A stretch of DNA of 64,000 bases from a virus (Duplodnaviria > Heunggongvirae > Uroviricota > Caudoviricetes). Each line of letters starts with the position of its first letter. Position 1 is the stretch's first letter. The position numbers were made by a program, and so were the translations under genes. Below the pieces are notes generated by a model. That model saw only the letters and a list, made by a program, of their open reading frames with translations, had not been told where the DNA came from and searched no databases. Below, in pieces: positions 5,445 through 63,980 of this stretch. The stretch lies in the IMG/VR virus record IMGVR_UViG_2861079508_000001; one strand, written 5' to 3'.

Positions 5445-6256
5445 GTCTCATCTCCCTTGAGCAAGTCTCTGTGACGCAAGTGATGCGTCGTATGTTTCTG
5501 ATACATTCCGCCGTAATAAGCACGACAACTTAGGCGGTCGATCTGGTGATGAAGAATCATTCCATCGCCGATATAAACCGCGCAGTGGTCAGGCATTTTC
5601 CCGTATTGGATAAAGAATACGTCCCCACGTTGAGGCTCTGTTCCGGGCGCAAGACGCACCAATCCCTCGTTACGGTAGTTCTGATCGAGAATGTCGTTAT
5701 CGCCGGTGTACCACGATGGAATATGCAGGTGTGCGTTCGGGTTTAGTTCGACGTTAAACTCACGCTTCAAATAGTCCCGACACAACATCCAGCAATCAAA
5801 TACGCCAAATACATACGGTCTGCCCAGGTATGGCATTTCGAAACCATCAGGTGTGATCACATTCATCTCGCTAAAATGGAAAGGGGCATCTCCCTCAACA
5901 TTCTTGCGAATAGCCAGAATCATCCACGGAACTTCCGTCGCTTCGCAGCCTGCACGATCGGCATCAGATGCTTCTGCTGATTCATCAGTATGTGAATGCC
6001 AGATTGCGATAACATCACCCGCATCCTCTGCCGCCATAATGTCGTCAACGTGCATTACAAAAGTGTTCTGCGGGTTCTCCGAAACATTCCGCGCTTCCAT
6101 AAAGCGATATTTGTCGCCATTAGTTCTAACCAGAAAGCCACACGCTTCATTAGGGTAGCGATTTATGGCGCAGAGATAGATTTGCTGCATAACGTCAGAG
6201 CCAAGCTCAGGGATTGCTTTATTACCCATACCGCGTAGCTCCAATAAATCCGCCAA
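5432..6256 (-). CDS. tail tip assembly protein (lambda gpK-like; JAB/MPN plus NlpC/P60 motifs)
   Basis: HSHTDESAEASD metalloprotease-like motif and DCWMLCRDY NlpC/P60-like Cys motif; synteny. Confidence 0.7.
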   Translation of the reverse strand: MADLLELRGMGNKAIPELGSDVMQQIYLCAINRYPNEACGFLVRTNGDKYRFMEARNVSENPQNTFVMHVDDIMAAEDAGDVIAIWHSHTDESAEASDADRAGCEATEVPWMILAIRKNVEGDAPFHFSEMNVITPDGFEMPYLGRPYVFGVFDCWMLCRDYLKREFNVELNPNAHLHIPSWYTGDNDILDQNYRNEGLVRLAPGTEPQRGDVFFIQYGKMPDHCAVYIGDGMILHHQIDRLSCRAYYGGMYQKHTTHHLRHRDLLKGDETCLS

Positions 6257-21806: not shown

Positions 21807-23063
21807 CTATCGAGAACCACCAAGAATAACACGGTTTTTGACTGGATACCTACGATGTACTGGATAGCCCAATGCGTCTGCACTATGCTCAATGCCACCT
21901 GTCTTATCCATATCTCGTGTTCCAGGCTTGTAGATGACTTTTTCCAGTGAATCAATCAAATGCTTGCACTTCGGATCGATATACAACCGGATATCTCCAG
22001 ATGCGGTCATCAGCATTCGGTTAACAGCATTAACACGATCCGCAATTGGCGGGTGCTTTTTCGAATAATCGACACGTAAGAATCCCTTCTCTTTGAATAT
22101 GTCGACGTCAGACTCCCCGCGAGCATGTTGGCGATAAGCACCTGCCGGATCTGGAAATACCGTTATCTGTGATTTCCAGCGCCAGAAGCGTCTCTCAAGC
22201 TCATCACAAACCTCTGCCGTGTTAGAGGAAAAGAGCACCAATTCATCAATTGCCCATAGCTCACCATTTGGCTGAGGTTGCAAAATTACTGAAGACATCG
22301 GGTCAATGTTGAAGTCCTGCCCTACCCATATAGGCAACCGAGGGTTGAACTGAAGCGGTTTTACATGCACGTTACGATCGAACGGGTAGTAAACGCGCCC
22401 GGACATGTTCTCAAAGCTCGCCAGGTACTCCTGAGCGAACGATTTCGGGTCCATATCGTTCTTAGCAGCTTCAATTTCCGCCGTAGGCACAAACGGAGAA
22501 TCGGCAGTTACAAACTGCCAGCTCTTCCACTGTCCCTTTCTTTGCAGCTCTACGTTCTGGCCTATAGTCCACAGTTTGTGAAATTCCGAGAAACCTTTTG
22601 GCGTACCAATGATAAGTGCACCGCCGCGTGTCGATGAAAGAGTAGGTCGTAACACCTTGTACCAGGTGTCAGCCTTCATATCCTGAAATTCATCAAGCAC
22701 TACAAAATGCAACGCTACGCCGCGCAGAGTGTCAGGCTTATCAGCACCTTTGAGGGCGATCTCCGAACCGTTCTTCAACACGATTGTCATCGTGGTGTCG
22801 TTCTTTTTCCTAACCCACTTACGAGGCAGAACTTCCTGTAGATCGTCCCACAAAATCTGGCGAGCCATCTGGTAAGTAGGAGCGACATACCAGACCCTTT
22901 GCTTTTTTTCCTTTGCCGCCGCACGAATAATAGTGGAGATCGACAACCGGGATTTTCCCCAGCGTCGACCAGCACAAACAACTTTAAATCGATGCGGAGA
23001 CTGGAAGACTTTCATCTGTCCAGAATGCAGTTGCACAAGACTGAGCGAGGACGGGATTGCCAT
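21807..23063 (-). CDS. terminase large subunit
   Basis: Walker A CAGRRWGKS and Walker B VVLDEF ATPase motifs; C-terminal nuclease-like region. Confidence 0.75.
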   Translation of the reverse strand: MAIPSSLSLVQLHSGQMKVFQSPHRFKVVCAGRRWGKSRLSISTIIRAAAKEKKQRVWYVAPTYQMARQILWDDLQEVLPRKWVRKKNDTTMTIVLKNGSEIALKGADKPDTLRGVALHFVVLDEFQDMKADTWYKVLRPTLSSTRGGALIIGTPKGFSEFHKLWTIGQNVELQRKGQWKSWQFVTADSPFVPTAEIEAAKNDMDPKSFAQEYLASFENMSGRVYYPFDRNVHVKPLQFNPRLPIWVGQDFNIDPMSSVILQPQPNGELWAIDELVLFSSNTAEVCDELERRFWRWKSQITVFPDPAGAYRQHARGESDVDIFKEKGFLRVDYSKKHPPIADRVNAVNRMLMTASGDIRLYIDPKCKHLIDSLEKVIYKPGTRDMDKTGGIEHSADALGYPVHRRYPVKNRVILGGSR

Positions 23064-23695
23064 TATTCGTCCTCCCCTTCACTTCCATCATCTGTCGCAT
23101 CAAATTCGCTTAGAGCTTCTTCTTCCAACGTCTCAAGCAATTCGTCATCGATGATTTCAGGCTCGTCGTCTTCCTGACGTAATTTCGCCACCTGGGAAGG
23201 CGTAAGCTCACCAAATACCAGGTTCGGAATTTCTTCCTCGTCATTTTCCGCATGATCCATGCCCAATGCTTTGGACGAAACTTCAAAGCATTTTGCAAGG
23301 GTATTACTGGCTCTCTGTAAGCTCTTGAGAGAATCCTCAATCGCCCCTAAAGGCTTACCCTCACGTTTGGCCGTAGTGACTTCGACCATCACCATCTGCC
23401 CCAACGCATACGCCCAGCCGTCATAACGTGTACGACGTTCTTCTATCTTTTCCGCACGGGCTTTAGCGCGAAGCTCTGCGTCAGATTTAAGAGACTCACG
23501 AACCATCTTCCCAACAGAGTCCGCGCCTTTCTCTAATCCTCGCTTTTTGAAATGTCTGGAGAGTGTTTCACGACGAATGCCGTACTCTTCCTCCAGCTTT
23601 GAGAGTGTATATTCGCCTGACGTCCATTTGGCTTCAGCTTCGGCCCACTCCGCTGGTGTCAGGCGAGTTTTTACCTCGTCTTTTTCGACCGTCAT
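23063..23695 (-). CDS. terminase small subunit (putative)
   Basis: 210 aa, N-terminal HTH-like region, acidic C-terminus, directly upstream of terminase large subunit. Confidence 0.55.
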   Translation of the reverse strand: MTVEKDEVKTRLTPAEWAEAEAKWTSGEYTLSKLEEEYGIRRETLSRHFKKRGLEKGADSVGKMVRESLKSDAELRAKARAEKIEERRTRYDGWAYALGQMVMVEVTTAKREGKPLGAIEDSLKSLQRASNTLAKCFEVSSKALGMDHAENDEEEIPNLVFGELTPSQVAKLRQEDDEPEIIDDELLETLEEEALSEFDATDDGSEGEDE

Positions 23696-23744
23696 AGATC
23701 CCTCTAAAACACACAGAGCGCGTCCATGCGCTCTAAAACAACTT

Positions 23745-23776
23745 GTTTACTGCATTTTCTAACCAACTTGTTTTCT
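23745..23776. promoter_or_regulatory. two copies of palindromic motif AACAA-N-TTGTT(TTCT)
   Basis: AAAACAACTTGTTTAC and AACCAACTTGTTTTCT upstream of terminase small subunit. Confidence 0.45.
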
Positions 23777-23790
23777 GGGTTGTTTAATTA

Positions 23791-23889
23791 GGTCTGGGCA
23801 TGTCTTATTAAGCCTGCTTCCGTATATATTTAATAAGTTACTTATTATTTATATATACAGAAGCAGGTCTTTAAATAAGCTCCCAGACC
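23791..23889. repeat. long imperfect palindrome (arms GCCTGCTTCCGTATATAT / ATATATACAGAAGCAGG), copy 1
   Basis: Inverted repeat read from sequence; near-identical arms recur at 47965-48035. Confidence 0.6.
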
Positions 23890-23891
23890 GA

Positions 23892-24158
23892 TTACATCAC
23901 CAGTAACTTCGCTTTGGCTCGACCTAAAGTGGTTAACCCAAGAGTTCGGCGGTGATAGCGATTGTCACTGCGTTGGCGCGTATGCCCTTTCTCCACAAGC
24001 CCCTTTTTTATCAGAGCGCGAATTGAGAACTGGATACTTTGCTTGGTTGTCTTGTACGGCAAAACTTCAAGCAATTCGTCCAGATCAAGTAGATAACCTC
24101 GCTCATAACCGAGATTGAGCGTTTTGATGATGTCCTTTTGTTTATCGGTTAACGTCAT
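23892..24158 (-). CDS. small basic protein, possible winged-helix DNA-binding protein
   Basis: 88 aa ORF, composition. Confidence 0.35.
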   Translation of the reverse strand: MTLTDKQKDIIKTLNLGYERGYLLDLDELLEVLPYKTTKQSIQFSIRALIKKGLVEKGHTRQRSDNRYHRRTLGLTTLGRAKAKLLVM

Positions 24159-24167
24159 GGCAAATCC

Positions 24168-25058
24168 TTATGCCGGTAAAGCAATTTCTAACGGTTTATC
24201 CAAAGGTTGTTTGTCGAATGCCAGCAGTGGCAGCGTGTCAGGCAGTCGACGACCAAAGTCAGGGTTTCGATACACCCCATACAACGGAGACGTAAAGCTC
24301 AGGTTGTGAATGTCCTTGAGCAACTTCACAATGCAGGCCTCGTCCACCAGACTGTCGGCAATGTCCTGAATCGTCGTGCCACGATTCCGCCCAGCTTTTG
24401 CCAGGGAACTGTTCTTGTGGTAGTCCGCCACCAGATCACGCAGTGCACGGCGACGACGAGACTCGCTCATTGCGAACAACTCTTTGACGATCGCCTCGTT
24501 ATCACCCGGGTCGGAACGGAAATGGCGCTGGAATACACGCAGTGCACTTTCATAGCTCTTCGGTCGCTCAGGGCGGATGAACTTAAACCCTGCTTTCATG
24601 GCGAAGGGATTGTATTTGCTCATCGAGGACTGGATCTCAATGATTGGCCGGTCATGCATCCTGCTAACCAGGTTAATCATTCGATAAGAGACGCCTACGC
24701 CACGATACTGAGTATCCACAACTGAGCGACTGATCACCGCAAAGTTGTTATTCACGTACCGACCCCAGTACTGGTTAGCCACGGTGGTATTAGTGGTTGG
24801 TTTCAACTTAGGAAACATGCGGTGGCGAGGTGCCAACAGTAGTTTCGGGTAAGCCATAACCACGACGCCCACCAGACGGTCATCAAGTTCGCAGCGATAG
24901 TAAGTTGGCGCGAAAGGTTTGCCGTCTGTTTTGTAGTGAAGCGACTTAAGAGCGTGCCAGTCCTCTACAGTTCCCTTTGTAACAGTCATTCGCTCCAGAA
25001 AGTCCAGATGACGCGGAAACTCTTCAGGGCGGTAGCGTTTAATGATGATGTCCGTCAT
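24168..25058 (-). CDS. GNAT-like acetyltransferase-fold protein with C-terminal extension
   Basis: YRGVGVSYRMI and NPFAMKAGFKFI resemble GNAT motifs A and B. Confidence 0.45.
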   Translation of the reverse strand: MTDIIIKRYRPEEFPRHLDFLERMTVTKGTVEDWHALKSLHYKTDGKPFAPTYYRCELDDRLVGVVVMAYPKLLLAPRHRMFPKLKPTTNTTVANQYWGRYVNNNFAVISRSVVDTQYRGVGVSYRMINLVSRMHDRPIIEIQSSMSKYNPFAMKAGFKFIRPERPKSYESALRVFQRHFRSDPGDNEAIVKELFAMSESRRRRALRDLVADYHKNSSLAKAGRNRGTTIQDIADSLVDEACIVKLLKDIHNLSFTSPLYGVYRNPDFGRRLPDTLPLLAFDKQPLDKPLEIALPA

Positions 25059-25720
25059 GAATGGACCTCATCGTGACTACCATTGTGATATTCCACCTTC
25101 ACGCGTTCTTTGTAGTGCTTGGTGATCTGCATATCCGGGCGCAGCGCGTTCTTCAGGTCTTCGTGAGTCGTCGCCACCATTACCGTCGCACCAACCTTTC
25201 GAGCGGCACGCTGGAGGTTAGACGCCACAACCTGAGCGGTTACACGGTCGAGAACAGCGCCGAACTCGTCAGCAGCCCACACTTTAGCGCCTGACTCAAT
25301 CAGTTTGGCAATCTTGAGACGATATTTCTGGCCGTCTGACATTTCAGAAGGCTTGCGAACAAACAGATATGCATCGTTCAGACCAGCCATAGATAACAAC
25401 CCAAGCGCATCACTGGTCGTTTTGCCCAACTGATCGATGACGTTAACCTCATTATCGAAGGTAAAATCATCGATGGAGGCTACAGACAGCCCTTCATCCT
25501 TCATCTGTCGTTGCAACTCGCGCAGCACAACGGATTTGCCGGAACCGGATTGGCCGGTGATGTACACCACATCGCCCTGCTTCACTTCCAGCTCCAGATT
25601 GTCGTAAAGCGTCCACTCTTTTTCGTCCAGGCCAAGCCCGAACGACTCAGCGATTTCCAACGTGCGCGTGGTTTTATTTACGCGTGTCTGAAACGATACG
25701 TTGATGATGTATTTGCTCAT
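25055..25720 (-). CDS. stand-alone ABC-type ATPase
   Basis: Walker A GQSGSGKS, signature MSDGQKYRL, Walker B VWAADEFG, H-loop TTHED. Confidence 0.65.
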   Translation of the reverse strand: MSKYIINVSFQTRVNKTTRTLEIAESFGLGLDEKEWTLYDNLELEVKQGDVVYITGQSGSGKSVVLRELQRQMKDEGLSVASIDDFTFDNEVNVIDQLGKTTSDALGLLSMAGLNDAYLFVRKPSEMSDGQKYRLKIAKLIESGAKVWAADEFGAVLDRVTAQVVASNLQRAARKVGATVMVATTHEDLKNALRPDMQITKHYKERVKVEYHNGSHDEVHS

Positions 25721-26385
25721 GCAGCCATCTCCCCGGAAGAGATCTTCTCCGCATATGCCACAAATGCGTCTACCCCGCTTTCTCCCGTCATTTCTTCCAT
25801 GTGGGCAAGCAAATCACCAACAACAATGGCAGAGCCAGCAGGGAGCGTTTTAAAGCCCAATACGTCGACAACACGTACTTCTTCCGCTGCAACTTCACGA
25901 CTGATCTCGGTGTGTTCATCCTTCTGTCGTTTAGTTTCTTCGCCAAGATCGATAACTAGCGAGTCGGTGTCCATTTCTTCTGTCATACTGCCAACGAGAA
26001 CATTCAACTCACGCTCTTCAAAGCCGAAAACCTCGATATCGTCCAGAACAAGCGACTCAAGCTCTTTCTGTAGCTTAATTGCATCGTAATCAATGCTGGC
26101 AAGTCGGTTATCTTCAAGGCGCTTCGCACGAACCTCGTCATCACTGAGATCATCGCGAACAATAACCGGTACGCGCTCAAGTCCAGCAAAAATTGCAGCC
26201 TCACGGCGGCCGTGGCCAGTAATAATTACGTCGTTCTTATCGACCGTAATTGGCTGGTCAAATCCGCGCTTTTTAATGGCTGCGGCTAGATCTCGGATCT
26301 GCTGTTCATCATGCTTTTTGGCATTCATCTCATAGGGAATAAGATCTGCCGGGTCGCGATATACGATTTCAAACTTTTTGGTCAT
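25717..26385 (-). CDS. ParB-like N-terminal domain protein 1
   Basis: ParB/Srx motif ITGHGRREAA; start at ATG with AAGGAG; stop overlaps next gene. Confidence 0.6.
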   Translation of the reverse strand: MTKKFEIVYRDPADLIPYEMNAKKHDEQQIRDLAAAIKKRGFDQPITVDKNDVIITGHGRREAAIFAGLERVPVIVRDDLSDDEVRAKRLEDNRLASIDYDAIKLQKELESLVLDDIEVFGFEERELNVLVGSMTEEMDTDSLVIDLGEETKRQKDEHTEISREVAAEEVRVVDVLGFKTLPAGSAIVVGDLLAHMEEMTGESGVDAFVAYAEKISSGEMAA

Positions 26386-27083
26386 TACATACGCTCCTTG
26401 TAGTAGTCGACCAGCCACACCAGAGCCTCACCAGCGTTCTCCATTTCATTACCGGTGTTAATAGCCTGCTCTTTGATGATGTTTTTTATGGTTTCTGCAA
26501 CACGATCTGACGCATCGAAAGTTACTTTGAAGCGCATGGTCTGATGTTCCGCACCCACACGTTCGGTTTTCTCTCGTTTGTCGGTATCGACAGGCTCATC
26601 ACTACCACGAGACAACGCCTCCAGTGCTTCAAGGTCGATTGCCGCCTCTTTTGCTAAAACCATCGAGATTTCGTCGTCATACGGGGCGATTTCAGACAGT
26701 TGATAGTCAAGTTCTGACTGAATTTCTTCAATGAAGCGTTGCAATGCGATTTGGTCGTCTTCACCGTATCGCTCGTTGTCCACCAGTGACATCTGTTTAG
26801 CTACGACATCGCTAATTTTGCCCACAGAAAGCACCGGAACCGTTGAAATTCCTTGCTCAATAGCAGCACGCCAGCGATGTTCGCCGCCGAGGATTTCAAA
26901 AAATCCATCTTCAAGTTCACGAGCCAAAATTGGCTTAAAAAAGCCCAATTTTTCGATAGAACCTTTCAGTTTTTCAAAATTCTGCGCACCAACCGAATTG
27001 GTGTTCCAGGTATTCGGGCGAAGGTTGGCAACATCAACCTGCAAAATCGTGATTTTTACATCCATTTTATTGCTACAATACAC
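26385..27083 (-). CDS. ParB-like N-terminal domain protein 2
   Basis: ParB/Srx motif LGGEHRWRAA. Confidence 0.6.
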   Translation of the reverse strand: MYCSNKMDVKITILQVDVANLRPNTWNTNSVGAQNFEKLKGSIEKLGFFKPILARELEDGFFEILGGEHRWRAAIEQGISTVPVLSVGKISDVVAKQMSLVDNERYGEDDQIALQRFIEEIQSELDYQLSEIAPYDDEISMVLAKEAAIDLEALEALSRGSDEPVDTDKREKTERVGAEHQTMRFKVTFDASDRVAETIKNIIKEQAINTGNEMENAGEALVWLVDYYKERM

Positions 27084-27087
27084 TAAG

Positions 27088-27112
27088 TAACCACTTACTT
27101 ATTATAATAGCC
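27088..27112. promoter_or_regulatory. palindromic motif TAAGTA-N-TACTTA in divergent promoter region
   Basis: CTAAGTAACCACTTACTTATTATAAT between ParB-like gene and helicase gene. Confidence 0.4.
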
Positions 27113-27147
27113 AAATAACATACAAAAGGCACTAAGGAAAGAGGTTT

Positions 27148-28707
27148 ATGACTGTTCGGATTGTATCTAACGCAGTAAATGCGCTTATTTCTGGCGCAGA
27201 TGACAAGGTAAAGCAACTGGTGCAGCAAATGTTGAGCTACGAAGTCGAGACTGGCGACTGGAAGGGCACAAGCACGATGTTCAACTGGAGTAAAAACTCG
27301 TTCCCTGCTGGCTTTGCCAAGCCTGTAGCGGCGAACTTGAACAAGGCGGGCATCAAATGTGTTCATATCCGCAAAGACAAAGCCCCGGCGCTTGGTAAAC
27401 CAAATCCGGCGGTTAACCCATTCCCATACAATCCTGATTATGCGTATCAGGATCAGACTGTGGAAACACTGGTTCGAGAGGGAATGATGATTGCGCAGAT
27501 CGCTACTGGTGGCGGGAAATCTAACGTTGCCTGCAAAGCAGCTGCACGTATCGGTCGAATGACATTATTTTTAACAACCCGCTCTGTTCTGATGTTTCAA
27601 ATGGCCGAAAACTTCCAGAGATCCATCGACTACCGCGCCGAAAATGGCGAACCGTGGTTAAAAGACCAAAAGGTTGGAGTCATTGGCTCGGGTGAGTTCC
27701 AGGTATCACGACATATCAACGTCGCTACAGTTCAAACTCTTGCAAGTTTCCTCGAAGAACCACCACGCGATGCAACACCAGATAAGAAAAGCTACCACCT
27801 CAAACGTCGGGAGTTGGTGAAACGCTTCCTTTCAAGTGTCTCTCTTCTTATTCTGGAAGAGGCGCATGAGTCTTCAGGCTCAAATTTCTATGACATCGCC
27901 AGATTATGTGTGAACGCAGACTATCGTCTGGCGCTTACAGCCACGCCGTTCATGAAGGATTCGACGGAAGCCAACATGCGCCTGATGGCGGTGGCCGGGC
28001 GAATTGAAATTAAAGTCACAGAAAAGTACCTGATTGATCGAGGCATTCTGGCAAAGCCGTACTTCCTTTATCATAAAGTTGCCTACAAGCCAGACGAGGC
28101 CAGAATCAAGGCCGAACTTGCCAACAAACACCTCAATTTTAGAGTTGGTATGAGCACCGCCTACCAAAAGGCTTATCAGTTGGGGATCGTGTATAATTTG
28201 GGACGTAACGAGGCCATTGTTCGCGAAGCATTGCTCTATAAGCAACATTCTCTCAATTGTATGACTCTGGTTCGTCTTAAACGCCACGGGCAAATCCTGA
28301 TGGAAATGATGAAAGAGTCCGGCCTTAGAGTTGACTTCATCTATGGGGAATCTAACCAGGCGACAAGGCAAGCAAAGCTGAACAGTTTAGCGTCTGGAGA
28401 AATAGATGTTTTAATAGGCTCGACTATTCTGGATGTCGGTGTTGATGTGCCAAGCGTTGGTGCGGTCATTCTTGCTGGTGGTGGGAAAGCAGAAGTTGAA
28501 ATGAGGCAGCGTGTCGGTCGTGGCTTACGAGCCAAAAAAAATCAGGCAAACGTGTGTTTTATCACTGATTTCATTGACATTAGCAACAAATACCTGTTGT
28601 CTCACTCTTATGAGCGAAAACACATCATCGACACCACACCTGGCTTTGCAGAAGGTGTATTGCCTATTGATGGAGCATTCGATTTTGGAGTTCTGAAACG
28701 AGATTAG
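27148..28707 (+). CDS. SF2 DEAH-box helicase
   Basis: Walker A TGGGKS, DEAH-like LEEAHE, motif III LTATP, motif VI QRVGRGLR. Confidence 0.75.
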   Translation: MTVRIVSNAVNALISGADDKVKQLVQQMLSYEVETGDWKGTSTMFNWSKNSFPAGFAKPVAANLNKAGIKCVHIRKDKAPALGKPNPAVNPFPYNPDYAYQDQTVETLVREGMMIAQIATGGGKSNVACKAAARIGRMTLFLTTRSVLMFQMAENFQRSIDYRAENGEPWLKDQKVGVIGSGEFQVSRHINVATVQTLASFLEEPPRDATPDKKSYHLKRRELVKRFLSSVSLLILEEAHESSGSNFYDIARLCVNADYRLALTATPFMKDSTEANMRLMAVAGRIEIKVTEKYLIDRGILAKPYFLYHKVAYKPDEARIKAELANKHLNFRVGMSTAYQKAYQLGIVYNLGRNEAIVREALLYKQHSLNCMTLVRLKRHGQILMEMMKESGLRVDFIYGESNQATRQAKLNSLASGEIDVLIGSTILDVGVDVPSVGAVILAGGGKAEVEMRQRVGRGLRAKKNQANVCFITDFIDISNKYLLSHSYERKHIIDTTPGFAEGVLPIDGAFDFGVLKRD

Positions 28708-28709
28708 TT

Positions 28710-28988
28710 ATGAGCGAAAAGAAAACAACTTATTGTCAGGTAGCATTGTCTGATAAGGCCAATGACAAACTTGGAAAGTTTCAAGTGAAACTAAAAGAAA
28801 AAAATATCAAAATGTCTAAGGCTGAAGTCATAAATACCATTCTGGAACAATTGACAATGGCCGACTTTGACAAGGTTATATCTTCTGTCGGGGCTTCCGC
28901 TAAGACTCGTGAGAAAATCATGCGTATCTATGAGAACTCTAATATGACAAAGGAAGATCTCGAAACGCTATTAAGCAGATTAAAATAA
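28710..28988 (+). CDS. hypothetical protein
   Basis: 92 aa ORF, translationally coupled to helicase. Confidence 0.4.
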   Translation: MSEKKTTYCQVALSDKANDKLGKFQVKLKEKNIKMSKAEVINTILEQLTMADFDKVISSVGASAKTREKIMRIYENSNMTKEDLETLLSRLK

Positions 28989-34687: not shown

Positions 34688-35017
34688 TTACGCGAATACC
34701 TCAAGAAACTCCTGAACGTCCCAATGCTGGACGAGGTGAAGATAGACCTTAGAAATCACGTCATTTTCGCTATCGCATGTGAAGTAGTACTTCTGGCTGC
34801 GGTTGTATGTGTCCACACAAAATTCGCTCATATCCATAAAGTCAGCATCATCACCCAGGTCGCTAATCATCAAAGCAGGTGCATCATCACGAGTCATCAG
34901 CTCCAGCACCCATCTTGAATTAATCAGAGTGGAAGACCAACCTTCCAGCTCATAAAACTGGTCAAACTCTTTTTGAGTCAATTTCTTAATTTGGTTGATG
35001 TCGATATTTGCAAACAT
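34688..35017 (-). CDS. hypothetical acidic protein
   Basis: Start at MFANIDINQ with RBS AAGGA. Confidence 0.5.
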   Translation of the reverse strand: MFANIDINQIKKLTQKEFDQFYELEGWSSTLINSRWVLELMTRDDAPALMISDLGDDADFMDMSEFCVDTYNRSQKYYFTCDSENDVISKVYLHLVQHWDVQEFLEVFA

Positions 35018-35029
35018 AAAGCAATCCTT

Positions 35030-35045
35030 AAACAAGATGTTTTCT
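35030..35045. promoter_or_regulatory. palindromic motif AAACAAGATGTTTTCT
   Basis: between -10-like GATAAT and RBS. Confidence 0.45.
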
Positions 35046-35379
35046 TAATGGTGTTATTATCGCAATAACGCACAGGCGAAAAAGGATTTTATTCCGGTGA
35101 ATGTGGTTTTGGCAGTGAGTTTTCAGGTTCAGTACAGAGTACACTTTTTACATTATTCTGATTTAGTGGCCGAAGATGGCTGGTGGGCAGAATAATCATC
35201 TCCCCGAAAACCTACTGAAATCGATTGTGACCCGTTGGCTGTCTGGCACAATTACGCTGTAACTGGGCATTCAGAGGGAATCCAGCGGTAAGTAGGTTCG
35301 CCTTCACGTGAGCGCCTCTCTTCTTCCCGCACATTACAGGTGGGTAGCCGCAACTCTCCCTCTCGCTATGCCGGTACGC

Positions 35380-35520
35380 CGCCGTTCCTGAACCGGCATC
35401 GAGCCTTTTCCCGAAATCCACACAGGCAACTCGACCGTTTCCCTGAAAACCTCCAGCCGTTCCCCGAAGGCAACCCAGCCGTTTCTGTAGCGGGATGCAA
35501 CCTTTTCCCTGTATGGACCG
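35380..35520. repeat. array of about 6 degenerate (G)CCGTTTCCC(T)GAA-like repeats
   Basis: Units at about 22-bp spacing read from sequence; Chi octamer at about 35179-35186 nearby. Confidence 0.5.
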
Positions 35521-35619
35521 AAGGCTGACCGTAGGGGTGTTACGGGGGATAAAATCAGGAGTTGAATAAATACGAAAAAGGAGGCGACACCCCTCCTTCC
35601 CTCCCCACTTATACATACC

Positions 35620-36580
35620 TGGCTTCTTCGCTATACATGTTGTGTTTTATCTGTCTCAACCTCTCTATAGGCGTTAATGCTCACTCCTTCCAGAATGTTC
35701 TATACGGCAACTATTTCTGTTGGTGAATTGGGTGTGTTGTTCTCTCTGTCGGTGTATGTGGTTTCGTTCGTTTTGCGGTGGTTCTTCTATGGGGTGTTCT
35801 CGTCGTTTTGGTGATTGTTCTTCTCCGTGTATGGAGTAATGGCAGGTGGGCGATTCCTTTCGTTGTTGTGTTTGAGTTGTTTGTCTGGAGTGTGTGAAAG
35901 GCTTTTGCAGTTATTCGTGTATTGGGTAATGGCATTTCCCGTGATTGTTGTGTTTCGTGTCTTTTGGGATTGAGAGAAACCTTGCGGTTACAGGCTTCGT
36001 TGGGGTTTCAGTGATTCTGGTGTTCTTCGCTGTTTGGGGAATGGCGTGTCGTGGGTATCGCGCGTATGAATGTTTTCGGATTGCCTGTGAAAGTTAGGTT
36101 GGTTGTCCGGTAGCCTGGGGAGAAGAGGTGGGTCTTTTCGGTAGCCTGCCATAAAGAGGTTGGTTGTTTTTGGAAATGGCATTTGTGTTATTTAGTTGTT
36201 TTGTTATGCCTGAAAATAAGTTGTTTATATGGTTGTGTAACGCAACGGGAGCGATTTTGAGCGTGTGTTTTTGTTGGTAGTGTGTTGGGTCGTCTGTGGT
36301 GAAAATTGGACGCTGTGGCGCTGTCTGCTGCGTAGAGTTACGGGTATAAGCAGTGATGTGTGAAAACGTCAATTTTTTAGACCAAATCGGGTGAAAGCGT
36401 TGATGTTTCGTTGATCTGTTATTCAGTTGTTTTCTTGATTGTATAAACAACTATAACTTATTGATATTTAAGGATGTGATTGCGGGTATGGAAGAAGAGT
36501 AGTGGCGATCAACGGATTCTTATAGAAAAGAATCAAATTGTGACCGCCATTATCAACTGATTGATTTGTTTACTTGTGTA
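35620..36580. repeat. ORF-free GT-rich, C-depleted region with degenerate repeats
   Basis: No ORF of 60 aa or more on plus strand; strong G+T skew; repeated GGNAATGGC and GGTAGCCTG...AGAGGTNGGT units. Confidence 0.6.
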
Positions 36581-58815: not shown

Positions 58816-59559
58816 TTACCATGTTCCCCATAGAGGGTTTTCCAATAATCTCGCCTCCAACGAATTGGCTACTATTGCCGTTTGCAACGTTGGTTGGGGA
58901 TAGTTTGCAAAGTCTGAATACTCATTTTCCTGCGTGACACGTTTATCTACGGCATGTTTAACGCCACTTGCTATGAAATGACGCATGATGCCCAACAGCC
59001 TCCGACTGTCTGCACTATCGTTTGCTAAAACATGAGGGAGCTGAAGTTCGATTTCTACCATTTCTCCATACTTACCAACAAACTGTAGTTTGTCCGCACT
59101 GTACTTTTTATCCCTCCTTTGGATAAGGAAACCAGTAAAAGCATCACCTGGCGATGCCAAACTATCCACCCGCTTATTGGCAAGTCGAATAAGGTTCGTG
59201 AAAGCCATACAGTGATGCGCACCCATTCCCCCAAAGAACCCTTCGCTATTAATGTTAAGATCTTCAGTTTCATGGGATGCAATAAACCCAGGCCCGACGT
59301 TGGGAAGATATCCCCCCTCAACAAAAGGATTAATCAGGATCGGCGCAATACATCCAGGTGGTAGTGATTTCAAACTTTGCATCAATGGTGTCTCGGATAT
59401 TAGACCAAGCAACGCGGCGAATTGTACTCCGTCAATATTGTTGCTGCCCCATAGAATACGTGGAGCCGCACCATTGGAAGTATGCCCATTGATCAGTTTT
59501 ATCGACTGCATCACTGCAAATACCTGCAAAAACTGCGAGCGGCTTAATTTAAACGACAT
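58816..59559 (-). CDS. hypothetical protein
   Basis: 247 aa ORF. Confidence 0.45.
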   Translation of the reverse strand: MSFKLSRSQFLQVFAVMQSIKLINGHTSNGAAPRILWGSNNIDGVQFAALLGLISETPLMQSLKSLPPGCIAPILINPFVEGGYLPNVGPGFIASHETEDLNINSEGFFGGMGAHHCMAFTNLIRLANKRVDSLASPGDAFTGFLIQRRDKKYSADKLQFVGKYGEMVEIELQLPHVLANDSADSRRLLGIMRHFIASGVKHAVDKRVTQENEYSDFANYPQPTLQTAIVANSLEARLLENPLWGTW

Positions 59560-61465
59560 AGCTGCGCCCCTCTTTAACTTCCAGCGTAATAGTTTCCCGG
59601 AACCATGACTTCATCTCTTTATGGGAGATAATCAGCACAGTACCTCGCTCGCGAGCTTTGGACTCCAGAATACCCATGAGGCGTTCAAGACCGGCTGTAT
59701 CGAGTGCATCGTCAATTTCGTCGCCGATAAACAAATCGATGTTTTTACTCGCCCGGTTACTAACCAGATCCTGCAATGCCAAAGAACACGCAATGCGAAC
59801 CTTCCGCTTCTCACCACCAGAGAGGGTTTGGAACGACTTACTTGAACCTTTCTTCTGCACACTAATGTTGAATTTGTCGCGATACTCACCTTTTTTAGTG
59901 ACATCCATCGTCGACCACTCAGCAGTAATATTCCCGTCAGACAACGTATTGAGATACTCGGCAGTGCGTGTATTCAGGAAAGGCGTAACAGACGTCAAAA
60001 TATGAGAACGCACCCCGGCAGGAGAGTAGACCTGACGAGCTTTTTCCAATAGCAACGTTTGTTCCTGAATAGCCTTCAACTCATCTTTTAAGGACTTGAA
60101 GGTAGACTTACTGGATACCAGGTTATCTTCGTGTCTGGCGATAAGAGCAATAAACGGATTAATCTCTTTTGATATACGATCGACCTCAGTACGAGCACGA
60201 GTCACAAGAGACTCAATAGCAACAACCTCCTTCTCACGATGACGCAAAGATGAGAGTTGTTTCGTAAGCTCTTCAATCCGGGCAATGATAGCCGTTACAT
60301 CAGGTGTCGTTTTAACAAGGGCAGACTCAATGCTTAACGCTTTCTCAAGATTCGTTTTGTGTTTAGCCATTGCCTCTGCAAGTGTCTTCGCCTGACCAAT
60401 TTCCTGACGTGCTTGTTCAATGAAATTCTCCTTCACCGTTGATAGATCTTCTTCGCAGTAGGCTTTGCCACAAGTAGGGCATGGTGATCCCACTTTAGTA
60501 CCAACCTCTTCTGCTTTGGTCTTAAAATTACGCGCGCGGCTCATTGCATCAGCCTGACTATTTTCTGTAGCTTTGATGCTTGCCCGAATATCAGTTATCG
60601 CACCACGAACTTTGAGCAACTTGGCGTCATGTTCTTCTTTTGAGGCTAACTTTTTGCGCTCACTTTCGATTGCCTTCTCGGTATCACGGCTCTGTTCGGG
60701 AAGAGTGCGGATCTCAAGTTCAACTTCCGTTAACTCAACTTCGGCACTGGCCAGCCCAGCCAGGGCATCGTCATAACGTTTAGAACGCTCTTGCTCCCAT
60801 GATTCAGAGGAGGCTTTCGCTGACTCAATTTCTGACTGTGTTGCCTCAATGGTCGAGATTGTCGACTCCAATTTGGTTTTAACCACATCCATACGTGCGG
60901 CAGCTGCATTAGCTCGCTCACGAGCAATAGCGTAGGCGCGTGTCAGTCTGTCAACGCCAGCGGCTTCTTCTACGATGGTTTTGAGGTTTTTGTCGGACAT
61001 TCCAGGTAAATCTGGCATAGCTTCTTGGCTCGCATAGATGGAAGCCATGAAAACCTCTTTAGATGCACCGATCAGACGCTCGACGAACTCTTGCGTCAGC
61101 GCATCTTTGCCTTTCGTCATATCGCCGTCTTCACCACGAACGATAAGCCGATTTTTGAACTCTTTGTGTTTACGGTGACGAATGATCGCATATCTCTTGC
61201 CTTCATCCTCGATGGTTACTGCAACACGACAGTTCTTTTCATGGTCGGTAGACAACACATCGTCCCCCTTCACACCATGAGCTGTTTCGCCATAAAGACA
61301 CCACATCAGGCTATTCATTAGCGTTGACTTTCCAGAGCCATTACTTGATGCGGAACTATCATCACTATTAACACCCTGAATGAGCACTAAACCACGCTGA
61401 TCTAACTCGACCTCCGCGCTGGCGATAGCCATAAAATTCTCAACCTGGAGCTTTAAAAACTTCAT
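59549..61465 (-). CDS. SbcC/Rad50-like ATPase
   Basis: Walker A NGSGKST, long coiled coil with zinc-hook CPTC, signature LSGGEKRK, Walker B FIGDEID. Confidence 0.75.
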   Translation of the reverse strand: MKFLKLQVENFMAIASAEVELDQRGLVLIQGVNSDDSSASSNGSGKSTLMNSLMWCLYGETAHGVKGDDVLSTDHEKNCRVAVTIEDEGKRYAIIRHRKHKEFKNRLIVRGEDGDMTKGKDALTQEFVERLIGASKEVFMASIYASQEAMPDLPGMSDKNLKTIVEEAAGVDRLTRAYAIARERANAAAARMDVVKTKLESTISTIEATQSEIESAKASSESWEQERSKRYDDALAGLASAEVELTEVELEIRTLPEQSRDTEKAIESERKKLASKEEHDAKLLKVRGAITDIRASIKATENSQADAMSRARNFKTKAEEVGTKVGSPCPTCGKAYCEEDLSTVKENFIEQARQEIGQAKTLAEAMAKHKTNLEKALSIESALVKTTPDVTAIIARIEELTKQLSSLRHREKEVVAIESLVTRARTEVDRISKEINPFIALIARHEDNLVSSKSTFKSLKDELKAIQEQTLLLEKARQVYSPAGVRSHILTSVTPFLNTRTAEYLNTLSDGNITAEWSTMDVTKKGEYRDKFNISVQKKGSSKSFQTLSGGEKRKVRIACSLALQDLVSNRASKNIDLFIGDEIDDALDTAGLERLMGILESKARERGTVLIISHKEMKSWFRETITLEVKEGRSYVV

Positions 61466-61740
61466 ATAACACCTTTGATACCGTGTGTTAGCTTTTGACC
61501 TTCTTTCAATCTGAACTCCGTATGCGCCGGGAAGGATCTGCGCCTCAATACGCCTTTTCTGGTTAACCTTCCAAGATAAAACGCTACGGGATTTCCTTGT
61601 GGCGGGTAGGGCTTGTGAAACATCACCGTCTGGCCTCGTTCAAGTCTTTTCATCGTGATGGCAAAGTCTCGAAAGCTCCCATAACGACTTTGCCTCACAC
61701 AGCCTCCGAACTCTCCGCTTCGGTGAGGATTTCCTGACAC
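61462..61740 (-). CDS. hypothetical small basic protein in the SbcD-SbcC gap
   Basis: ORF track only; overlaps both neighbours. Confidence 0.2.
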   Translation of the reverse strand: MSGNPHRSGEFGGCVRQSRYGSFRDFAITMKRLERGQTVMFHKPYPPQGNPVAFYLGRLTRKGVLRRRSFPAHTEFRLKEGQKLTHGIKGVI

Positions 61741-62780
61741 AAAATATCCAACTTGCTCAGATCAAATCCGCCGTCAGTATCGTGGACAATCTTGCAATAA
61801 GCAGATACCGACTCTCCCAGGCTATCGATTTTGCTGGTTTCCGTTGTGCTTGCTGTCCCTTCCATCATTGATGACTTACGGATGAAGTTGCACACGACAC
61901 CTTTTGCACCCATTGTTTTGAGGATGTTCTGGTACTTAATGCCTTCTTCATCGTTCTCAATTACGGCGCGGAAACGCACGTAGTTGCCGCGAATTTGGTC
62001 ATCGGCAACATAATCTTCCAGGTTAATGAATTTAGGCGCACTGGTTTCGTAGTGACTGAAACTGCCGTCCGGGTTTACGATCATGTAACCAGCCAGAGAT
62101 CCAACATCTCCCCAATTTTGATGGGTCAGCGCACCGACACTGATAACTCCAGGAATGACCTCTTTGTGGTTGTGGTAATGCCCACTAAGCACGAGACGAA
62201 AGCCGATATCCTTTAACTCCTGCGCATCGATACCGACGTCAGGCATTGTTGGAATGGCTTTGTTAATGGATGTATGGATAACAACGTCATGGTTATCACC
62301 TTCTACGCTCTTACGTAATGCTTTCAGATCGCTGATAAGCTCCGCATGATTGTTACGCCAGCTAATCAGGTGGACAGTCACATCACCAATTTTTATTGAG
62401 TGTGGGCGCTTGCCACATACGATTACCACGCCGATAGAACTCAGCGATGCTGCTGCGTTGGCGCTATATACTGAATCGTTGGTTTCAAGATCGTGATTAC
62501 CGGCCAGCATTACTACTGTCAGATCAAGCTCGTTGATAATCCACTTGTACGTTTCAGTTACGTAATGCAAAACAGAAGGGGACACAGTTCCTCGGACGTG
62601 AAATGTATCACCGGCAACCAACATGTACTTACAACCGGCCTTCTTCATGGCGATGGCTGCTTCTTTCGTTGCTTCCAACTGTATTTCAAGTCTGGAGTTA
62701 AGCCCCTCTGCGTTCGTCGTGGAGAACGCATCCCATTTGTGGTAGTGGCAGTCAGAAATGACGCCGTATGGCAAAGTCAT
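61695..62780 (-). CDS. SbcD/Mre11-like nuclease
   Basis: Phosphoesterase motifs DCHYH, GDTFH, GNHD. Confidence 0.75.
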   Translation of the reverse strand: MTLPYGVISDCHYHKWDAFSTTNAEGLNSRLEIQLEATKEAAIAMKKAGCKYMLVAGDTFHVRGTVSPSVLHYVTETYKWIINELDLTVVMLAGNHDLETNDSVYSANAAASLSSIGVVIVCGKRPHSIKIGDVTVHLISWRNNHAELISDLKALRKSVEGDNHDVVIHTSINKAIPTMPDVGIDAQELKDIGFRLVLSGHYHNHKEVIPGVISVGALTHQNWGDVGSLAGYMIVNPDGSFSHYETSAPKFINLEDYVADDQIRGNYVRFRAVIENDEEGIKYQNILKTMGAKGVVCNFIRKSSMMEGTASTTETSKIDSLGESVSAYCKIVHDTDGGFDLSKLDILCQEILTEAESSEAV

Positions 62781-63034: not shown

Positions 63035-63679
63035 TTACAGCGCGTCAGTGGGCTTTTTACGCGCTGCGTTTATGCTTATGACGCCAGCTTTTGGACGTGG
63101 GTCAACAAGGTTAAGCTCTTCTTCGCTGTGGTATTCGAGGTCGAACTCACGTTTTACATGTCTGATGTAGATTGCGGTGAGCAGGCTATCTTTGGTCAGA
63201 AAGTGTCCGTAGGATTTGCGGATCACTTCTTCTACCTTCTCGATTTTCTCACCACCCATACAGAGATGATTAAACCGGCTGTGTTTCCGCAACATTTCGT
63301 CTACTGGGCCTGAGTAAACCTTGTCTACTTTCCCAAAACGGATGATTTTCCCTGTGTCTGCGGATACGAGGCAAATCAGCTTGTCTGGTGATAAACGATC
63401 TCGCCACGTCACACCTGAACGGAGTGTGTTGAAGTAGGGAGCATCCAATCCGATGATCGGTTTACGAAATGCGAGTAATGGAACGTACCTGATGCAACTG
63501 TTTAAATGAAAATTCACACCAGCCTTATCAAGTTTAATTCTGGTTTCGTAGATCGGGCACTTCGCCGCTATACCGCAGATGTCACAAAGCAACTTCTGCT
63601 TATTCAGGTTGGAATTTGATTCGATAGTGTAGGAGCCGTCTTCAAGACGACGAACCCAGCGCGTGCGTTTTAGATCCAT
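63035..63679 (-). CDS. hypothetical protein with Cys cluster (CDICGIAAKC)
   Basis: 214 aa ORF adjacent to candidate origin repeats. Confidence 0.45.
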   Translation of the reverse strand: MDLKRTRWVRRLEDGSYTIESNSNLNKQKLLCDICGIAAKCPIYETRIKLDKAGVNFHLNSCIRYVPLLAFRKPIIGLDAPYFNTLRSGVTWRDRLSPDKLICLVSADTGKIIRFGKVDKVYSGPVDEMLRKHSRFNHLCMGGEKIEKVEEVIRKSYGHFLTKDSLLTAIYIRHVKREFDLEYHSEEELNLVDPRPKAGVISINAARKKPTDAL

Positions 63680-63776
63680 ATGTCATTTTTCTGTGATTGT
63701 TAGCCGAGGCAACGATAACCCACCAGGTGCGCCGAAGGTAGTAAATGCCTGTTTTAATTATTCACATATCCACAGG

Positions 63777-63833
63777 ATAGATCCTAATAAAGAGATCCAT
63801 AGATAGATCCTTATATAGATCAAATAAGATCCC
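63777..63833. repeat. five (T/G)AGATC(C/A) heptamers at about 11-12 bp spacing (GATC cluster)
   Basis: Direct repeats read from sequence. Confidence 0.6.
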
Positions 63834-63879
63834 CGATCGCTGTAAGCCGCGCCACGACTGGTCTGAAGTCATGTTCATG

Positions 63880-63980
63880 TATGCTGTCAGCGGTAATTGA
63901 TAGTCTGTCAGCGGTTCACCGTATGCTGCCAACTGTTTTTGGTATTCTGTCAGCGGCAAATCAAGTATGCTGTCAGCGGT
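63880..63980. repeat. four to five TGCTGTCAGCGG-like iterons at about 20-bp spacing
   Basis: Direct repeats read from sequence at the window end. Confidence 0.6.

Follow-up and report, generated by a model that had tools for sequence, protein, structure and literature searches.

A split ABC ATPase-GNAT module with ParB-like partners beside the terminase genes of an SSU5-type phage-plasmid, and its possible role as a DNA acyltransferase of tailed viruses

The coupling of a P-loop ATPase to a GNAT domain is known from TmcA/NAT10, which makes N4-acetylcytidine in RNA at the expense of acetyl-CoA and ATP. In phage Mu, the gene for the GNAT-fold DNA modifier Mom lies at the right end of the genome and is expressed late. 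ParB-like proteins have also been linked to DNA modification: phage thymine dioxygenases depend on a ParB-like activator without a DNA-binding domain and are encoded in clusters that co-occur with terminases (PMC13229309), while related orphan ParB folds bind ATP, GTP or CTP, and fusions of ParB to acetyltransferases and to methyltransferases have been catalogued (PMC12704722). The window analysed here, a 64,000-nucleotide stretch of a tailed virus of the class Caudoviricetes (IMG/VR record IMGVR_UViG_2861079508_000001), carries a cassette in which two ParB-like proteins, an ABC-type ATPase, a GNAT-fold protein and a small basic protein are encoded next to the terminase genes. Judged by domain content and order, the cassette is a split, five-gene version of an accessory module that is widespread in tailed viruses and has the ABC ATPase and the GNAT protein as its core, usually joined by one or two NTP-binding proteins of the ParB/Srx fold. 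Its most likely activity is the transfer of acyl groups to phage DNA or to a DNA-bound target, and we tentatively favour an ATP-driven, ParB-assisted acyltransferase that would modify phage DNA late in infection.

All five open reading frames (ORFs) of the cassette are present on the minus strand within 23892-27083, in the following order of transcription:

26385-27065, minus strand: ParB-like protein 1, ATG start (226 aa, isoelectric point (pI) 4.6; Pfam ParB_N, phrog_723)
25717-26385, minus strand: ParB-like protein 2, ATG start (222 aa, pI 4.5; Pfam ParB_N, phrog_930)
25055-25720, minus strand: stand-alone ABC-type ATPase (221 aa; Pfam ABC_tran, full motif set)
24168-25058, minus strand: predicted GNAT-fold acyltransferase subunit (296 aa, pI 9.8; fold comparison, motifs A and B)
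23892-24158, minus strand: small basic protein, probable winged helix-turn-helix (88 aa, pI 10.1; phrog_900, 2e-44)

An earlier note on this DNA, made from the letters alone, had described five translationally coupled minus-strand genes upstream of the terminase small subunit gene (terS); the ORFs, the overlapping junctions and a terS candidate (phrog_867) were all found. The longest ORF of ParB-like protein 1 reaches 27083 (GTG), and its likely start is the ATG at 27065, as in the annotation of Escherichia phage Cyrano. With the Cyrano starts, the junction between the two ParB-like genes is TAATG (1-nt overlap); the ParB2/ABC and ABC/GNAT junctions are ATGA (4-nt overlap each), and a 9-nt gap separates the GNAT gene from the small gene, with an AAGGA Shine-Dalgarno sequence across the stop codon. 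Because of these overlapping junctions and the AAGGA at the 9-nt spacer, translational coupling of the five genes is plausible. Each gene already belongs to a PHROG family (723, 930, 293, 886 and 900); phrog_886, which is labelled 'ABC transporter ATP-binding subunit', is in fact the GNAT subunit, indicating a misannotation.

The ABC ATPase matches Pfam ABC_tran (PF00005) at 5.8e-13, with 50.1 bits against a cut-off of 25, and it is the counterpart of the N-terminal half of fused ABC-GNAT proteins in other viruses. The stand-alone ATPase with complete motifs that had been proposed from the sequence could be located in full: Walker A is GQSGSGKS (residues 56-63), the signature is MSDGQ (127-131), Walker B and the catalytic Glu lie in VWAADEF (147-153) and the H-loop His lies in TTHED; the Q-loop region and the D-loop complete the set. 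Across 30 diverse fused homologues, the Walker A motif, the signature, the D and E of Walker B and the H-loop His do not vary, and the same holds for the catalytic residues of the ABC and GNAT halves alike. The protein is 52-59% identical in phages nickie, RHEph10 and BUCTxx99. No transmembrane permease or substrate-binding gene was present in any neighbourhood inspected, and the partner of the ATPase is a soluble GNAT domain; a reading of the cassette as an ABC transporter or auxiliary metabolic gene is ruled out by the absent permease.

The GNAT subunit was identified solely by fold comparison, which revealed the GNAT alpha/beta fold; sequence searches of Pfam, NCBIfam, PADLOC and PDB sequences with the protein returned no match. 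As had been supposed, a GNAT core (approximately residues 24-165) is followed by a long C-terminal extension, which is helical and spans residues 165-296 (~130 residues). The core contains the acyl-CoA motif QYRGVGVS (24687-24710) and the motif B sequence YNPFAMKAGF, R119 and G122 of motif A are invariant, and the subunit carries a family-specific conserved insert, PKLLLAPRHRMFPKLKP. In the structural comparison Mom ranked near the top, at a level no better than that of generic GNATs. Fused relatives score above the Pfam Acetyltransf_1 cut-off of 20.7 (Jace, 35.9 bits; Nonlabens, 37.4 bits), and we predict the subunit to be an acyl-CoA-type acyltransferase.

Both ParB-like proteins exceed the gathering cut-off of Pfam ParB_N (PF02195) of 26.3 bits. 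ParB-like protein 1 scores 49.9 bits (3.3e-13), belongs to phrog_723 (1.5e-79) and matches the structures of Spo0J, ParB and Noc at 1e-9 to 1e-5; ParB-like protein 2 scores 35.0 bits (1.5e-8) and belongs to phrog_930 (1e-112). The GxxRxxA NTP-binding arginine motif and the E/D-N-x-R box are conserved in both proteins, as GGEHRWRAA (26862-26888) and VDNER (26769-26783) in the first and as GHGRREAA (26194-26217) and EDNR in the second. The two share 33% identity over 116 residues (E 5e-10), so the pair described from the sequence as ParB/Srx paralogues can indeed be regarded as paralogous. Their C-terminal halves are acidic (pI 4.1-4.3). ParB-like protein 2 also matches phrog_498 'DNA methyltransferase' (5e-32) and the N-terminal region of PADLOC MTase_II (2.7e-17); by these profile scores its N-domain is most like the ParB domains that are fused to phage DNA methyltransferases. 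Nickie gp158 and RHEph10 gp83, which are labelled 'DNA methyltransferase', are ParB-like 2 homologues of ~220-230 aa and are too short to contain a methyltransferase domain, indicating that the label is a misannotation. Against TIGR00180, the two window proteins reach 43.3 and 43.0 bits, below the curated cut-off of 58.45, and the N-domain alone aligns. An AlphaFold2 model of ParB-like protein 1 had a pLDDT of 38 from a shallow alignment of 12 sequences at 85-88% identity to the query, and homologue searches with ParB-like protein 1 and with the ABC protein gave near-identical enterobacterial sequences only among the top 120 matches listed.

The last protein of the cassette is basic, as had been reported; the helix-turn-helix assigned to it in the earlier note is weakly suggested by sub-threshold matches to the Sta1/Lrs14 winged helix-turn-helix families and a MarR-like sequence pattern, and the protein is probably of the winged type. 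In BUCTxx99, JGB6 and nickie, a homologue is encoded at the corresponding place (phmmer 3e-10 to 5e-7).

That the ABC and GNAT proteins form one unit is indicated by their fused relatives. With tblastn searches using the ABC protein and a fused homologue, followed by Pfam, single polypeptides of ~365-400 aa with an ABC_tran domain and then a GNAT domain were found in Leptospira phages LE3 and LE4, Gordonia phages (Sourvirus, Axumite), Rhodococcus phage Jace, Arthrobacter phage EastWest, Nonlabens phage P12024S, Pasteurella phage Pmp13 and Porphyromonas phages; S. pyogenes prophages, Tenacibaculum phage pT24 and a T4-like Vibrio phage were matched by tblastn, without a Pfam scan. The domain order in the fusions is the gene order in the window. 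A profile of the window's GNAT family, searched against 1.84 billion representatives, matched 918 cluster representatives at E<=0.001; among the 150 matches listed, many were ~450-500 aa long and matched from residue ~200-230, after the ABC domain, and the matches often extended through the C-terminal extension. Homologues of both genes carry the JGI label 'ABC-type ATPase with predicted acetyltransferase domain' (COG2401), and the family signatures are present: FG-L/I-G-x-D-E near the N-terminus, FHY, R-V-V-x-P-K-Y-R-G-x-G and Y-N-P-F-x-E-K-A-G. Both window proteins align along fused homologues and thus belong to a COG2401-type family that is here split into two genes. The best genome matches fall in metagenome-assembled genomes of Bathyarchaeia and Nitrososphaeria, in Planctomycetota and in Alcaligenaceae, and because archaea and bacteria are both represented, the family is taken to span archaeal and bacterial viruses. 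Literature searches on COG2401, on the gene combination and on the carrier phages found no functional study or assigned function.

Within this family, one 847-aa protein (P0284) carries a LAGLIDADG/Hint intein in its ABC domain, directly after the Walker B DEF motif. Three others (P0312, P0322 and P0359) begin with an N-terminal P-loop region, followed before the ABC domain by a motif that resembles a PD-(D/E)xK nuclease by eye, a reading without profile-search support. At least 565 IMG/VR loci matched the family, and gene neighbourhoods were taken from the best 80. Contig ends are a caveat wherever they are used as evidence: 43 of the 80 loci have a contig end within 1.5 kb downstream of ABC-GNAT (~10 expected), and the proposal that these are physical genome ends was withdrawn because 13 contigs stop exactly at the ABC-GNAT stop codon (L023, L024, L026, L029, L046-L048, L052, L054, L056, L059, L086 and L093), which is likely to reflect provirus trimming at gene boundaries.

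Rather than being lacking in related phages, the cassette is strongly conserved in them. In the clade of siphophages of ~105-120 kb, GNAT-like homologues are 41-43% identical in phages of Pseudomonas (nickie and relatives), Rhizobium (RHEph10 and relatives) and Stenotrophomonas, and 34% identical in Xanthomonas phage JGB6. The gene order is constant in this clade, running from the divergent helicase gene through ParB, ParB, ABC, GNAT and the small gene to a gap, the terS candidate, the terminase large subunit (TerL) gene and the portal gene, and the small protein is kept as the last cassette gene throughout the ~110-kb clade. Because relatives carry extra small genes between cassette genes, it is clear that the split subunits tolerate inserted genes between them. 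Klebsiella phage ST13-OXA48phi12.3 has a 183-aa ORF without a Pfam match (L002:6047-6598), RHEph10 has a DUF2829 gene (L004:5393-5695) and nickie has small ORFs (L003:4168-4329, 5646-5981).

Over 23000-28800, the window shares 98.4-98.7% identity with Escherichia phages PhiR41_1, CMS-2020a and Cyrano (pLF82), against ~83% with Salmonella phage SSU5 and ~80% with Klebsiella SSU5-like phage-plasmids. The cassette occurs in 247 of 5,426 complete E. coli genomes (4.6%) and is plasmid-borne in every one of them. Given this identity to SSU5-like phages and the invariable plasmid location, we assign the window to an SSU5-type phage-plasmid; such elements are also widespread in protein-database sequences from Klebsiella and other enterobacteria. 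The Cyrano genes listed as expressed in LF82 lysogens (PMC9928086) do not include those of the cassette, and LE3 and LE4, which are described as lytic phages, carry the module (PMC6078989). On these two grounds, the cassette is not regarded as a lysogeny function; its synteny in the ~110-kb siphophages speaks against plasmid partition.

The genes and domains that accompany the ABC-GNAT core point to DNA. In LE4, Axumite, Jace, EastWest, Pmp13 and S. pyogenes 315.4, the gene immediately ahead of ABC-GNAT is ParB-like, and two proteins, P0314 and P0341, are fusions of ParB, zinc-ribbon, ABC and GNAT domains, as detected with a hidden Markov model built from cassette-associated ParBs (E ~1e-8). 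Because of the ABC-GNAT fusions, these larger ParB-containing fusions and the preceding ParB genes, we consider the components to be functionally linked. In addition, fusions of family B DNA polymerase (PolB), ABC and GNAT of 1260-1310 aa were found (P0326, P0300 and IMG/VR loci L021, L043, L090 and L091), and in Enterococcus phage 9184 the genes follow one another in the order polymerase, ABC, GNAT; ORF024 of that phage (L011:5043-5873), labelled 'DNA polymerase', is actually a GNAT domain protein. The PolB and ParB fusions, the basic GNAT subunit (pI 9.8), the methyltransferase-type ParB domain and the late, pre-packaging position together suggest that DNA is the place of action. The earlier idea of a DNA-targeting machine thereby gains indirect support, from the ParB and PolB fusions and from terminase adjacency in unrelated phages; the part of it that placed the action on repeats elsewhere in the window was not borne out.

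A second group of neighbours could supply acyl donors. After ABC-GNAT, Jace encodes an aspartate 1-decarboxylase (gp87, PanD; 2e-33) and a protein with a CoA-transferase III domain (gp88); in Gordonia phage Axumite and in Porphyromonas phages ABC-GNAT is followed by a PF00551 formyltransferase gene, and in S. pyogenes 315.4 by an ASCH-domain gene. With PanD, CoA-transferase and formyltransferase as neighbours, the enzyme may well consume large amounts of acyl donors and, in some phages, donors of an unusual kind. Axumite gp3 (L008:1805-2452), labelled 'tRNA-methyltransferase', is the PF00551 formyltransferase. In the Mu-like Porphyromonas phages, ABC-GNAT lies at the extreme right end, with the formyltransferase, as the last genes, at the place that mom has in Mu; at the left end, Porphyromonas phage008a_KCOM2797 (L014:4893-6496, L180) carries genes for a repressor and a transposase as well as a MuB-like gene.

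The DNA linkage, the donor-gene neighbours and the precedents for each element are the reasons why we favour a DNA acyltransferase. From the gene content, folds, intact motifs, conservation, fusions and neighbourhoods we infer a substrate, a timing and a benefit as follows. The cassette would be expressed in the lytic cycle and not for plasmid maintenance. The acidic ParB-like paralogues would be nucleotide-dependent activators or loaders of the enzyme, as DpdB is for DpdA and with the ParB-like activator of phage thymine dioxygenases as a parallel, and the small winged helix-turn-helix protein may provide DNA anchoring or autoregulation. The ABC subunit would dimerise on ATP and place the basic GNAT subunit on DNA, and the GNAT subunit would then move an acyl group from acyl-CoA to a DNA base, most likely to an exocyclic amine; the donor is presumably acetyl-CoA here, and other acyl-CoA donors are possible in relatives with donor-making genes. 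As an outcome, the genome would be chemically marked just before it is packaged by the neighbouring terminase and would be protected in the next host. A broader generalization, which we offer as a possibility and hold to be rather doubtful, is that ABC-GNAT proteins and their ParB-like partners form an unrecognised class of ATP-dependent DNA N-acyltransferases in bacterial and archaeal tailed viruses; such a class would transfer acetyl groups in most cases, with beta-alanyl- or formyl-containing groups conceivable where PanD, CoA-transferase and formyltransferase genes are present.

Several points weigh against a DNA acyltransferase. The literature found reports no modified base in SSU5-like phages, Nickievirus or other carriers, and no protein activity. 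The ABC domain is nearest to transporter-type nucleotide-binding domains, not to the DNA-binding classes SMC, Rad50 and UvrA, and the ParB-like proteins are acidic, with no helix-turn-helix or other DNA-binding domain detected in either. No ParB gene was found within 7 kb in the best 80 IMG/VR loci, indicating that ParB is not obligatory. PanD and CoA-transferase could just raise the CoA supply, the timing of expression is deduced from gene position alone, and the recurrent position beside the terminase genes fits a packaging role equally well.

A packaging role has to be weighed on the genes and signals that flank the cassette, of which those below lie outside the module or, for the intergenic region, belong to it only putatively:

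23063-23695, minus strand: terminase small subunit candidate (phrog_867; annotated so in Cyrano)
21807-23063, minus strand: terminase large subunit, TerL (Terminase_6N, 3e-9; Cyrano annotation)
27148-28707, plus strand, divergent: SF2 (UvsW/XPB-like) helicase (Pfam ResIII, DEAD, Helicase_C)
23696-23891, unstranded: intergenic region between cassette and terS, with a ~99-nt palindrome and a hairpin with a T tail

The portal gene follows the terS candidate and TerL downstream of the cassette. We consider it unlikely that the module is a packaging accessory in which the ParB-like proteins, the winged helix-turn-helix protein and ABC-GNAT work with terminase; they might mark or prepare the initiation region at the palindrome, clear or acetylate DNA-bound proteins in front of the motor, or enter the capsid together with the genome. 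In at least six unrelated lineages (SSU5-like phages, LE3/LE4, Sourvirus, 315.4-like elements, Pmp13 and Jace), the distance between the module and terS/terL is 0-5 genes, and the module is upstream of these genes in the SSU5 clade, LE4, Axumite, 315.4, Pmp13 and Jace; a Terminase_6N TerL gene stands immediately upstream of it in 52 of the 80 best IMG/VR loci. In Pmp13, the module comes after the Q antiterminator and lysis genes, which places it in a late operon, and a conserved palindrome lies between the cassette and terS. The ParB-like protein of LE4 was also found by mass spectrometry in CsCl-purified virions, although the authors of that study allow contamination as an explanation (PMC6078989). 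However, phages outside the clade whose TerL is closely related (45% and 35% identity) manage packaging in the absence of the module, every carrier inspected keeps its own terS candidate, and the module is also found beside or fused to DNA polymerase, in replication modules, at the Mu-like right end, and isolated, far from the terminase genes, in T4-like and jumbo phages. The site upstream of terS is moreover common for late DNA-modification genes, so position alone does not discriminate. Because close TerL relatives lack the module, and given its positions in T4-like, jumbo and Mu-like phages, the module is by its distribution an accessory outside the packaging motor, and the TerL relatives without it rule out an essential terminase subunit.

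Equally unlikely in our estimate is an acyltransferase for takeover or anti-defence that acts on proteins or small molecules, with the ABC and ParB-like parts as regulators. The targets would be a host or phage protein (compare the anti-CRISPR AcrVA5, which acetylates Cas12a), a nucleoid protein, a polyamine or a signalling nucleotide. Such a role fits the patchy, accessory-like distribution across phages, the gene labelled 'acr candidate' that the module adjoins in Porphyromonas phages, the anti-defence-type genes inside the cassette of relatives (for example, DUF2829 in RHEph10) and the weak, partial matches of the ABC protein to mad3/mad8 of the MADS defence system in PADLOC. Yet PADLOC gave no significant match of cassette components to catalogued defence or anti-defence systems, and the GNAT subunit matches no family there; the PolB and ParB fusions and the terminase linkage point to DNA and not to a soluble target, and a late-operon position is ill-suited to an early function. 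A protein identity of 41-58% at a fixed core position in phages of Alpha- to Gammaproteobacteria would also be unusual for fast-evolving counter-defence genes.

Plasmid partition or maintenance, with the ParB-like proteins as centromere-binding proteins and the ABC protein as a motor acting on the repeat arrays, is highly improbable and was rejected: GenBank and RefSeq label both genes as ParB/RepB/Spo0J partition proteins, the element is plasmid-borne in all 247 carrier E. coli genomes and repeats are present at 35-36.5 kb and 63.8-64.0 kb, but the cassette contains no ParA-type ATPase gene (the ATPase present is an ABC-type enzyme that elsewhere forms one polypeptide with an acyltransferase), both ParB-like proteins stay below the TIGR00180 cut-off and have no detectable helix-turn-helix, the cassette genes are outside the Cyrano lysogen-expressed list, and synteny of the cassette extends to Nickievirus, RHEph10-like, Stenotrophomonas and Xanthomonas phages, with its core in the lytic phages LE3/LE4.

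The repeats themselves, on which the cassette had been proposed to act (35.4-36.5 kb and 63.77-64.0 kb), are real, and the tests run gave no link between them and the cassette. The region 35000-36500 is gene-poor and contains several families of dispersed direct repeats of 15-37 nt, such as TGTATKGRGTAATGGCA, which is present three times; a tandem array was looked for there and none was detected. Two tandem arrays, both short, are present at the window edge (63768-63980), one of 26 nt x 2 and the other of 42 nt x 2.5; they lie upstream of a phrog_2105 gene (63035-63679, minus strand). A nuclease pair of the phage-plasmid's own, SbcC-like (638 aa) and SbcD-like (361 aa), is encoded at 59549-62780 on the minus strand, and the SbcC-like protein, of the coiled-coil type, is a second ABC-class ATPase in the window.

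On the other side of the cassette lies the divergent SF2 helicase gene that had been pointed out. Its start, 27148, is separated by 64 nt from the start of the longest ORF of ParB-like protein 1 and by 82 nt from the likely start of that protein. All five members of the ~110-kb clade that were inspected keep the helicase gene in synteny with the cassette, and a functional link between the two is possible. Towards terS, much of the gap is taken up by the imperfect palindrome of ~99 nt, with arms at 23791-23829 and 23851-23889 and an AT-rich centre; a GC-rich hairpin with a T tail lies at 23735-23714 (minus strand), ~20 nt ahead of the terS start. The palindrome is kept in a Klebsiella relative, and Rhizobium phage RHEph10 has a different palindrome, with 34-nt arms, at the corresponding place. 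The GenBank records of SSU5 and Cyrano are linearised 9 bp off the palindrome centre. A scan of the intergenic region for promoters and terminators gave no signal above chance. The palindrome and hairpin may form a terminator, an operator or a packaging-site region, and their membership of the module is putative.

The genes and the phages that carry them are already in the databases, and the sequence itself is ordinary. The combination had been called unrecognised in the earlier note; this holds in that no paper was found that describes it as a system, but COG2401 and the PHROGs do cover the genes. What appears to be undescribed in the literature found is the module as a unit, that is, the ParB-ABC-GNAT linkage, the distribution in bacterial and archaeal viruses, the terminase and polymerase context and the acyl-donor genes. 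The module is real, widespread and systematically misannotated as 'ABC transporter' or 'partition protein'. If DNA were acylated by it, this would be a new chemical class among phage genome modifications, made by a new enzyme architecture (ABC ATPase plus GNAT, aided by ParB), as well as a second independent case of ParB-fold proteins activating DNA-modifying enzymes, and a conserved core block of the SSU5-like phage-plasmids would be explained. Were the N-acyltransferase class to prove true, a new family of natural DNA modifications and new enzymology would follow. Even with a protein or packaging target, the module merits experiment, and it can be tested cheaply in a tractable E. coli or Salmonella phage.

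Among described systems, COG2401 (MK0520-type) proteins belong to the same family as the core, with profile matches over the ABC, GNAT and C-terminal regions; unlike those fusions, the window encodes the two parts as separate genes that are plausibly coupled in translation. COG2401 is a computational label, and the viral nature of the family and its ParB, terminase and PolB context are not described in the literature found. With ParABS and ParB-SMC, the cassette shares the ParB/Srx NTP-binding fold and the GxxRxxA motif, and the pairing of ParB with an ABC-class ATPase recalls SMC loading; in contrast, there is no ParA, no detected helix-turn-helix or parS, the ABC protein is of the transporter nucleotide-binding-domain type without a coiled coil, and the module is present in non-plasmid lytic phages. 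TmcA/NAT10 likewise couples a P-loop ATPase to a GNAT domain, whereas TmcA has a RecD-like helicase module, not an ABC domain, as its ATPase and acts on tRNA or rRNA; no homology was detected. Mu Mom (PDB 8bv8), a DNA adenine carbamoylmethyl-transferase, has the GNAT fold and acts on phage DNA, but it has no detectable sequence relationship to the subunit described here, works alone, without an ABC ATPase or ParB, and differs from it in that the subunit has a family-specific insert and a 130-residue C-terminal extension. A last, putative parallel is with clade E of 5mYOX and its ParB activator (PMC13229309) and with DpdB-DpdA. The partner in the cassette is an ABC ATPase plus GNAT instead of a dioxygenase or transglycosylase, and there are two ParB paralogues instead of one; however, in those systems a small orphan ParB without an obvious DNA-binding domain adjoins the DNA-modifying enzyme and is required for its activity, the clusters often lie with terminase genes, and the conserved NTP-binding residues are kept, as they are in both ParB-like proteins of the SSU5-type cassette.

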